Shown in pieces: positions 3,325 through 4,272 of a DNA stretch of 5,993 nucleotides. The notes below the pieces were generated by a model, which was not told the origin of the DNA, made no database searches, and saw only the letters and a program-made list of their open reading frames with translations. The stretch's first letter is position 1, and every line of letters starts with the position of its first letter. Source of the stretch: a virus (Duplodnaviria; Heunggongvirae; Uroviricota; Caudoviricetes). A program made the position numbers and the translations under genes. The DNA is taken from the IMG/VR virus record IMGVR_UViG_2778261058_000003; one strand, written 5' to 3'.

Positions 3325-4272
3325 TTACCCCCTGAAGCCCGGCGGAATTTCGGTGTCCGGCTCGGAAATATGATTCACACAACGCTGTACAGGCGAACGC
3401 CCCAGACGGATAACCAGTTCATCCCATTTTTCGCGAAGCTTTGACGGGCTCATGACGTTTTTTACCCAGAAGGGATCCCGCTGTACCCGACCAAACATTT
3501 CGCAAATTTGTCTGTGAGTTCTGCCATCCAGCATCCGCATTGTGCGCACATCATTGGCCCATGCAGTCCAGTTTGGTTCTTTCGGTCGCATGATTTCGCC
3601 ATCATCGCTGGCAGCCTGCTCGTAAAGACTCACGATTCGTCCCCAGATCCACTGCGCACACGCCAAATCTTCCTGGCTGCCCCACTGGCGTTTTTTCGCA
3701 CTGAACACAACCGCGTCAGGGTGTCGGGTTAAAAAATCCTGTTCAGCCGTCTGCGGGTCCGGTTGCGAAGCGTCCGGACGAAAAGATCTTTTATCTGACG
3801 GATCAGGTTTTAATACTGACGGATCGGGGCCAACCATCGCCCCCCTATCCGACTGTTTTTTATCAATGGTTGATCCATCAAAATTTGAGGGGTCAACCGT
3901 TGAGGGGGCAATATTTGACGGGTCATTTTTTGCCTGGCTAATTTTTCTTTTCGGTTTATATGCCTCACGCGCCGCCGCTGCTGCTGCTTCGAGTTTTTCC
4001 ACATTAAGGCGGTAGATATTGCTTTCATTACGCCCACCGACCTTACGTTCCTCCTTCTTCAGCCAGCCGTTCTTTTCCAGTTCCGCTATCGCCGCTTTAA
4101 CCGTTGATTCACTCTTTGCTCCAATCTGACGACGAATGGTCTCCACTGCAGGCCATGACACACCTTCGTCATTGCTGTAATCTGCAAGGCGAGCCATTAC
4201 TGCCACCCTGGATAAGATCATGCCGGTGAAGGCACACCCTTCCCAGACAAGACCATGAAGCTTGCTGCTCAT
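3325..4272 (-). CDS. Phage replication initiation protein: N-terminal winged-helix (replication protein O N-terminal-like) domain, repeat-rich linker, C-terminal domain possibly DnaT-like
   Basis: 315-aa ORF. The N-terminal segment (LADYSNDEGVSWPAVETIRRQIGAKSESTVKAAIAELEKNGWL) matches the typical HTH of phage O-like/replisome-organizer proteins. The central linker has DPS-rich repeats encoded by iteron-like DNA repeats. Sits in the replication position after the cro and cII-position genes. Confidence 0.75.
   Translation of the reverse strand: MSSKLHGLVWEGCAFTGMILSRVAVMARLADYSNDEGVSWPAVETIRRQIGAKSESTVKAAIAELEKNGWLKKEERKVGGRNESNIYRLNVEKLEAAAAAAREAYKPKRKISQAKNDPSNIAPSTVDPSNFDGSTIDKKQSDRGAMVGPDPSVLKPDPSDKRSFRPDASQPDPQTAEQDFLTRHPDAVVFSAKKRQWGSQEDLACAQWIWGRIVSLYEQAASDDGEIMRPKEPNWTAWANDVRTMRMLDGRTHRQICEMFGRVQRDPFWVKNVMSPSKLREKWDELVIRLGRSPVQRCVNHISEPDTEIPPGFRG
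3796..3925. repeat. Iteron-like direct repeats (consensus about TGAsGGrTCA) inside the replication gene; candidate origin of replication
   Basis: Ten-mers at 3796 (tgacggatca), 3817 (tgacggatcg), 3871 (tgatccatca), 3886 (tgaggggtca), 3901 (tgagggggca) and 3916 (tgacgggtca). The last four are spaced exactly 15 bp apart; the first two 21 bp apart. AT-rich tracts flank them at 3851..3870 and 3926..3960. Confidence 0.45.

Follow-up and report, generated by a model that had tools for sequence, protein, structure and literature searches.

A repeat array in the linker-coding part of an HTH_36 initiator gene as the probable replication origin of a lambdoid E. coli prophage

Several phages of the lambdoid group are described as having an initiator gene that contains its own origin, an arrangement established for lambda. 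Lambda O, P22 gp18 and phage L gp18 have their own iterons inside the coding region, with six copies of an 11-bp repeat in gene 18 of phage L (PMC8022706). Iterons are also found in the O gene of Shiga toxin (Stx) phages with a lambda-type O, where their number varies and the arrangement has been studied (PMC7466680). Modules combining an HTH_36 domain with YdaT have been catalogued in Stx phages as 'Eru' types, and the origin and iterons of these modules are not described there (PMC8951638). Here we analyse a Caudoviricetes stretch of 5,993 nucleotides (IMG/VR record IMGVR_UViG_2778261058_000003, hereafter the window), which is the immunity and replication region of a lambdoid E. coli prophage of the Rac/Eru type, and whose initiator module looks like one of these HTH_36 plus YdaT types. 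A first-pass annotation had proposed a candidate replication origin embedded in the initiator gene. Comparison with relatives supports this proposal: the repeats in the linker-coding part of the gene are probably the replication origin of the prophage, with a probability that we put at roughly 0.75.

Four 12-bp pseudo-palindromic units of the TTGACCCCTCAA type make up the array at 3870-3926; they follow one another in exact 15-bp register, and one is inverted (Table 1). On the coding strand each 12-bp pseudo-palindrome is followed by a 3-bp spacer, and the units read in order ATGACCCGTCAA-ATA, TTGCCCCCTCAA-CGG, TTGACCCCTCAA-ATT and TTGATGGATCAA-CCA. The pattern TGASSSRTCA has four matches for 0.17 expected, a number reached in none of 200 shuffles, and the looser GAYSSNTCA has nine for 1.33 expected (0/200 shuffles). 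When the whole window was searched for the 12-mer TTGACCCCTCAA with at most two mismatches, all matches fell inside 3870-3926. The repeat search also returned iterons 3 and 4 as a 41-bp near-palindrome with 20-nt arms that are 85% complementary.

Six sites of the form TGA(c/g)GG(a/g)TCA had been listed by the first-pass annotation, and all six are present on the plus strand where it placed them. The pattern is exact at 3796 (TGACGGATCA), 3886 (TGAGGGGTCA) and 3916 (TGACGGGTCA), one base off at 3817 (TGACGGATCG) and 3901 (TGAGGGGGCA), and matched on the opposite strand only at 3871 (TGATCCATCA), which is the inverted copy. The exact 15-bp register claimed for the sites at 3871, 3886, 3901 and 3916 was recovered both by the repeat search and by the TRF program (period 15, 3.2 copies, score 54). 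The sites at 3796 and 3817, by contrast, are not members of the array; they form a separate class of GATC box within the probable unwinding segment, and this class is conserved more widely than the array units. One element comes in addition to the six sites, a degenerate unit with a half-unit at 3826-3848, which is the counterpart of a TTAAGGGGTCAA-TGG-TTGACCCC block conserved in relatives.

As had been proposed, all of them fall within the linker-coding part of the replication gene, an open reading frame of 315 amino acids (aa). They are translated as NDPSN, IAPST, VDPSN, FDGST ... DPSVLKPDPSD, at aa 116-160, between an N-terminal HTH_36 winged-helix domain (aa 25-71) and a lambda-O-type C-domain (aa 161-288) that is followed by a DnaT-like tail. 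The protein matches PHROG 391, 'replication initiation O-like' (E=1.5e-112), and is 100% identical to WP_063082131.1 of E. coli ETEC4090. The Pfam scan of the initiator gave HTH_36 alone, with Phage_rep_O (PF04492) not detected, and the HTH_36 domain is the presumed reader of the iterons. When the initiator was compared with lambda O by BLASTP, only aa 161-288 aligned (with O aa 155-270, 36% identity over 128 aa, E=2e-25), and the N-domain was without detectable similarity. The analogy with lambda drawn in the first-pass annotation is therefore in part homology: since the C-domain is homologous to that of lambda O, the repeats sit where the iterons and the A+T tract of ori-lambda sit, at aa 116-160 as compared with aa 117-145 of O for the annotated lambda iterons.

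In lambda, the C-terminal domain of O is the P-interacting part of the protein. In the window protein the C-domain is extended by a tail that is identical to the C-terminus of E. coli DnaT at 14 of 20 residues (70%, E=1e-7), and that was the sole match in a PDB sequence search with the initiator. This tail explains the 'primosomal protein I' annotations found among relatives. It could have been copied from the replication-restart primosome as a short motif for binding a host partner. Some relatives with another type of C-domain (Flotzy, Kp4866-6 and phiNP) have a similar GFR(G/S/T) ending, and others, for example YeP1, phiP27 and EKP1, do not. An AlphaFold2 prediction of the initiator made without an alignment had a mean predicted local distance difference test score (pLDDT) of 41.7, too low for use.

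The locus thus resembles ori-lambda in having a cluster of repeats, predicted here to bind the initiator, in the linker-coding middle of the initiator gene, with the least stable A+T-rich stretch of the gene directly downstream of the repeats. It differs in its HTH_36 N-domain, where lambda O has Phage_rep_O, and in its sites, which are 12 bp long with a strict 15-bp period and both orientations, whereas lambda has 18-bp palindromic iterons 20-24 bp apart. Its A+T tract, which is less pronounced, has conserved GATC boxes; there is no P gene after the initiator gene, and lambda O has no DnaT-like tail. The N-domain thus places the initiator outside the lambda O family, and the lack of a P gene places the region outside the lambda replicons, whereas the C-domain and the architecture of the origin are of lambda type. 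P22 and phage L share with the window distantly related O-type initiators, short imperfect in-gene repeats and origins that are mainly inferred from sequence; they differ in repeat sequences, in initiator families and in a phage-encoded DnaB-type helicase, gp12, which has no counterpart in the window. The Stx phages are similar in being lambdoid prophages of pathogenic E. coli with iterons in the O gene (PMC7466680). Their initiators, however, have N-domains that are true homologues of that of lambda O, their iterons are lambda-like, and binding has been studied experimentally.

Plasmid origins offer a further comparison. There the iterons, of about 17-22 bp and ~21-22 bp apart in helical phase, are not part of the rep coding sequence and are usually accompanied by DnaA boxes. 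The window shares with pSC101, R6K, RK2 and P1 oriR a winged-helix Rep, an array of Rep sites and an adjoining A+T-rich region, but its sites are in the gene with a 15-bp period, and its DnaA boxes are at chance level.

Repeats inside a coding sequence could also be a by-product of a slippage-prone, low-complexity linker rich in Pro, Ser and Asp, with no cis-acting function. All units of the window do lie in one reading frame and encode similar pentapeptides, and alleles vary by whole 15-bp units (four in the window, five in the common E. coli allele), as slippage would give. We compared the window with a set of 91 distinct homologous genes, from phages (SfII/SfIV, phiNP, YeP1, phiP27, Klebsiella phages and others) and from one genome per species across the Enterobacterales. 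Repeats were found in the linker at the matching spot in all 91 genes. Homologues keeping the protein linker without the DNA repeats, which the first-pass annotation had held incompatible with its proposal, were not encountered: the largest 9-mer family reaches at least four copies in the linker third in 50 of the 50 full-length homologues scored, with a mean of 5.7 copies there versus 2.4 in the other thirds.

Between the window and 11 diverged homologues, conserved residues of the linker are encoded by the identical codon in 264 of 303 cases (87%), as against 322/749 (43%) in the N-domain and 366/788 (46%) in the C-domain, the compared pairs being phylogenetically non-independent and the alignment of repeat on repeat raising codon identity somewhat. 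Despite these frozen codons, the linker peptide is the least conserved part of the protein. Serine is encoded by TCA in 58% of cases within the repeats versus 18% elsewhere in the same genes. In a profile whose units were picked by likeness to the consensus, all 12 unit positions are conserved, codon third positions included, whereas the 3-bp spacer is free even at first and second positions. Within the clade of the window, 28 copies of the 12-mer point one way and 19 the other, all of them in 15-bp register, and the encoded pentapeptides are accordingly unrelated: those of the first orientation contain DPS, DPP, NPP or APS (and TPP among clade units), those of the opposite one EGS, EGL, KGS or DGS. 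Frame-shifted copies of the unit are found in phiP27, Kp4866-6 and a Vibrio phage. The repeat periods of relatives (15, 15, 33 and 32 nt in phiP27, 17 and 22 nt in the Vibrio phage, 23/24 nt in HannyBb and mEp460, 21/24 nt in Min27) include several, namely 23/24, 32 and 17/22 nt, that shift the frame. Because synonymous sites are frozen, units occur in both orientations and periods in relatives break the frame, these comparisons indicate that selection acts on the DNA rather than on the peptide. The view of the repeats as a mere by-product of slippage in the linker appears highly improbable and, on this comparative evidence, already largely refuted.

The type of repeat follows the N-domain of the initiator. 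Genes with an N-domain at least 74% identical to that of the window have TTGACCCCTCAA-type units only, and those at most 65% identical have TCYGAYNNNTCRRAW units, the modules contrasting as TTGACCCCTCAA-type versus TCTGACNCNTCAAAA-type. In HannyBb and mEp460 both the N-domain and the iterons are different, the iterons entirely so, and the C-domain is homologous to the window's, with 90% identity in DNA in the case of HannyBb. Nucleotide homology with phages and prophages that have another N-domain or another upstream module repeatedly starts or stops at ~3792, just past the last GATC box, so that the N-domain and the repeats move together as one module; this position marks a recombination junction between an 'N-domain + origin' module and a C-domain module. 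An N-domain and repeats exchangeable as a module apart from the C-domain are thus a further likeness to lambda, where such a module is known from lambdoid hybrid phages. The two other iteron types were located as follows: HannyBb and mEp460 carry four or five 23-nt repeats (CATCRGKTCAAAATG...) followed by an A+T-rich TACAGAGAATA repeat (L004 2713-2828; L006 2782-2897), and the 'O' gene of Stx phage Min27 carries three GGGGTGGGGCAGGAGCTGCCC repeats at 21/24 nt (L016 1736-1801).

Constraint on the DNA and co-variation with the N-domain point to a cis-acting site of the initiator and not to initiation itself. The repeats could accordingly be protein-binding sites selected at the DNA level for a regulatory role, such as autoregulation or attenuation of the early rightward transcript, titration of the initiator (in copy number control or in exclusion of related superinfecting phages) or handcuffing, with the true start of replication elsewhere. 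Ectopic copies of ori-lambda are known to block lambda growth by titration (PMC4488673), and less stable A+T-rich DNA is present in the nearby intergenic stretches 4957-5030 and 5729-5788. We nevertheless regard a purely regulatory role as unlikely. The position of the repeats relative to the homologous C-domain is that of ori-lambda, and the order of iterons followed by the least stable segment recurs in lambda and three homologues. Furthermore, matching units occur nowhere else in the window and, with one exception, nowhere outside the linker in the 91 genes, so that a second cluster able to be the real origin was not found.

A candidate DNA-unwinding segment, the 40 bp of lowest stability in the gene, adjoins the iterons on their downstream side in gene orientation. 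The same stability scan, when applied to lambda O, picked out its known A+T-rich region, and in SfIV and an Edwardsiella homologue it picked out the equivalent block downstream of the iterons. The AT-rich tracts that the first-pass annotation saw around its sites are indeed the parts of the gene with the lowest stability (z about 3), but they are modest, at 65-77% A+T, and the intergenic regions of the window are less stable. The A-rich tract on the upstream side of the array is not kept in relatives. A likeness in DNA between the lambda tract AAAAGATTATTCGTCAG and AAAAGATCTTTTCGTCCG of the window was considered and dropped, as it required an indel and was without statistical support.

The A+T-rich segment at 3780-3825 carries the two identical GATC boxes. 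GATCCGTCAG has two matches for 0.19 expected (6/200 shuffles), and 80 of the 91 homologous linkers have a pair of GATCCR boxes. Asp is encoded by GAT at the two boxes (81%) and by GAC in the array (77%). Four of the 18 GATC sites of the window fall within 91 bp, at 3785-3875, and a link between methylation and firing of the putative origin is possible. In the window and in most phage relatives (L004-L007, L010-L012), a DNA methyltransferase gene, often for adenine methylation, lies within a few genes of rep on the downstream side.

These GATC sites, the conserved box pair and the methyltransferase gene near rep would also suit a target of some other factor, be it SeqA/Dam, DnaA, a packaging (pac) site or a recombination hotspot at the module junction; for the latter, the homology breakpoint at ~3792 adjoins the repeats. 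For DnaA there is a single exact match to the box consensus, TTTTCCACA at 3995-4003 on the plus strand, ~70 bp from the array. In this stretch, however, the protein is conserved and the DNA is not conserved in other clades, and DnaA-box-like matches across the window number 11 versus 13.2 expected, that is, chance level. The sequence of the repeats tracks the N-domain of the initiator and not the host or the packaging genes, and the element comprises more than the GATC boxes. An origin with a methylation-sensitive portion would account for these boxes just as well; oriC and P1 oriR are examples, with GATC sites in their A+T-rich region. A target of another factor is therefore very unlikely in our judgement.

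If the repeats are an origin, dimers of the HTH_36 domain would bind the 12-bp pseudo-palindromes (TTGA-CCCC-TCAA) every 15 bp at 3870-3926, together with the degenerate unit at 3826-3848. The resulting nucleoprotein complex would destabilise the adjoining A+T-rich DNA at 3780-3825, which holds the two GATCCGTCAG boxes. The lambda-O-type C-domain and the DnaT-like tail may then recruit the DnaB-DnaC helicase complex of the host, a step that the phage DnaC-like loader would perform in relatives having one. Transcription from the early rightward promoter through the initiator gene would cross the origin, as it does in lambda. The comparisons show the repeats themselves, their selection as DNA, their co-variation with the N-domain and their match in position with ori-lambda; binding, unwinding, helicase recruitment and origin activity are inferred.

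Several points, in addition to the limits of the codon and profile comparisons given above, weigh against an origin at this place. No helicase-loader gene (of P, DnaC or DnaB type) was found in the window. The least stable 40 bp are 68% A+T, versus 78% in lambda, and for instability the 3780-3819 segment is merely in the top ~3% of the whole window. With a spacing of 15 bp, successive sites are rotated by ~150 degrees and so face almost opposite sides of the helix, whereas the iterons of classical origins are phased; the complex is therefore probably packed otherwise than the lambda O-some. The prophage may be defective. Finally, no origin of the HTH_36 N-domain family, experimental or otherwise, was found in the literature searched.

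As to the loader, the initiator gene of the window is followed on its 3' side by the DUF977/Ren-like gene and then by the DNA methyltransferase gene, with no lambda-P-type loader among them. The identical initiator gene of ETEC4090 has a DnaC-like ATPase gene and a DUF1627 gene next to it (L001 3608-5619). HannyBb, mEp460 and SfII/SfIV, which are viable phages, likewise have no helicase-loader gene adjoining the initiator gene. A speculative possibility, to which we give clearly less than even odds, is that the window represents a P-less variant of the lambda replicon, defined by HTH_36, in-gene 12-bp sites of either orientation packed at 15 bp, a lambda-O C-domain and a copy of the DnaT tail. 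By mimicking DnaT, the tail would bring the DnaB-DnaC machinery of the host (or PriB) directly to the phage origin, so that the phage would need no loader of its own, and the GATC boxes would couple firing to Dam methylation, possibly via the phage methyltransferase.

Plasmid records matching the segment were considered as a sign of autonomous replication and set aside, the matches being mostly mislabelled chromosomes. One record deposited as a circular plasmid, NZ_CP148542.1 (15,977 bp; L099), is limited to the early-right and lysis region of a lambdoid prophage and includes this initiator gene (five-unit allele, rep 1660-2637) and a DnaC-like gene. Its rep and ydaT-like genes are frameshifted; sequencing errors in a lambda-dv-like replicon or an artefact of assembly could explain the record.

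Of 5426 complete E. coli genomes, 1514 (28%) contain the segment or an allele 15 bp longer, O157:H7, O103 and O111 strains among them; most have the allele with one extra 15-bp unit. Relatives of the segment are found across the Enterobacterales. Origins within the initiator gene are well known as an arrangement; for this common E. coli HTH_36/YdaT module the arrangement is not described in the searchable literature. The present analysis extends the textbook arrangement and does not change it. It narrows the probable origin to ~150 bp, a target for studying the post-induction replication of these prophages, some of which are relatives of Stx phages. Its location would also be useful for predicting replication incompatibility or exclusion among co-resident prophages, and it opens the question of how a lambda-O-type C-domain works without P.

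Table 1. Coordinates of the repeat elements, the initiator gene with its parts, and neighbouring genes in the window.
Feature	Position	Strand	Evidence
Iteron 1, ATGACCCGTCAA, C-type	3915..3926	-	
Iteron 2, TTGCCCCCTCAA, C-type	3900..3911	-	
Iteron 3, TTGACCCCTCAA, C-type, identical to the clade consensus	3885..3896	-	
Iteron 4, TTGATCCATCAA as read on the plus strand, inverted (G-type) copy	3870..3881	+	
Degenerate unit plus half-unit, ATAGGGGGGCGA TGG TTGGCCCC	3826..3848	-	Comparison with relatives (L018-L024), inverted-repeat search
A-rich tract AAACCGAAAAGAAAAATTAGCCAGGCAAAAA, upstream of the array in gene orientation	3927..3957	-	
GATC box 1, GATCCGTCAG	3816..3825	-	
GATC box 2, GATCCGTCAG, identical, 21 bp from box 1	3795..3804	-	
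Least stable 40 bp of the gene, 68% A+T, three GATC sites (candidate DNA-unwinding segment)	3780..3819		Nearest-neighbour stability, z=3.0
Replication initiator gene, 315 aa	3325..4272	-	Open reading frame list, Pfam, PHROG
HTH_36 DNA-binding domain, aa 25-71	4060..4200	-	Pfam, E=5e-8
Lambda-O-type C-terminal domain, aa 161-288	3409..3792	-	BLASTP
C-terminal 20 residues, QRCVNHISEPDTEIPPGFRG, DnaT-like	3328..3387	-	Sequence comparison
cI-like repressor gene (HTH_3 + Peptidase_S24)	5042-5689	+	
Cro-like gene	4718-4945	-	
YdaT/CII-like gene	4296-4721	-	
DUF977/Ren-like gene	2868-3284	-	
DNA methyltransferase gene	2383-2871	-	

The genes around the initiator are those of a lambdoid immunity and early region (Table 1). 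In the Rac prophage of K-12, the matching slot of the order racR-ydaS-ydaT-X-ydaV holds an unrelated initiator, the DUF1376 protein YdaU (L008 3120-3977), so that this slot is mosaic as to the type of initiator. Rac oriJ with YdaU was considered as a described equivalent and rejected: as the K-12 Rac initiator differs, the literature on oriJ is not applicable, and Rac oriJ is not the element of the window. An Rfam scan of the whole window gave no match, and a promoter scan of 3300-5100 gave no promoter-like site. Terminator-like sites in the same 3300-5100 interval are at chance level in number; one of them, a hairpin with a T-run at 3919-3936 on the plus strand, antisense to the gene, overlaps iteron 1 and the A-rich tract. 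Toward the right end of the window, at 5794-5812, TRF reported a tandem repeat of the pentamer CCACC with 3.8 copies.

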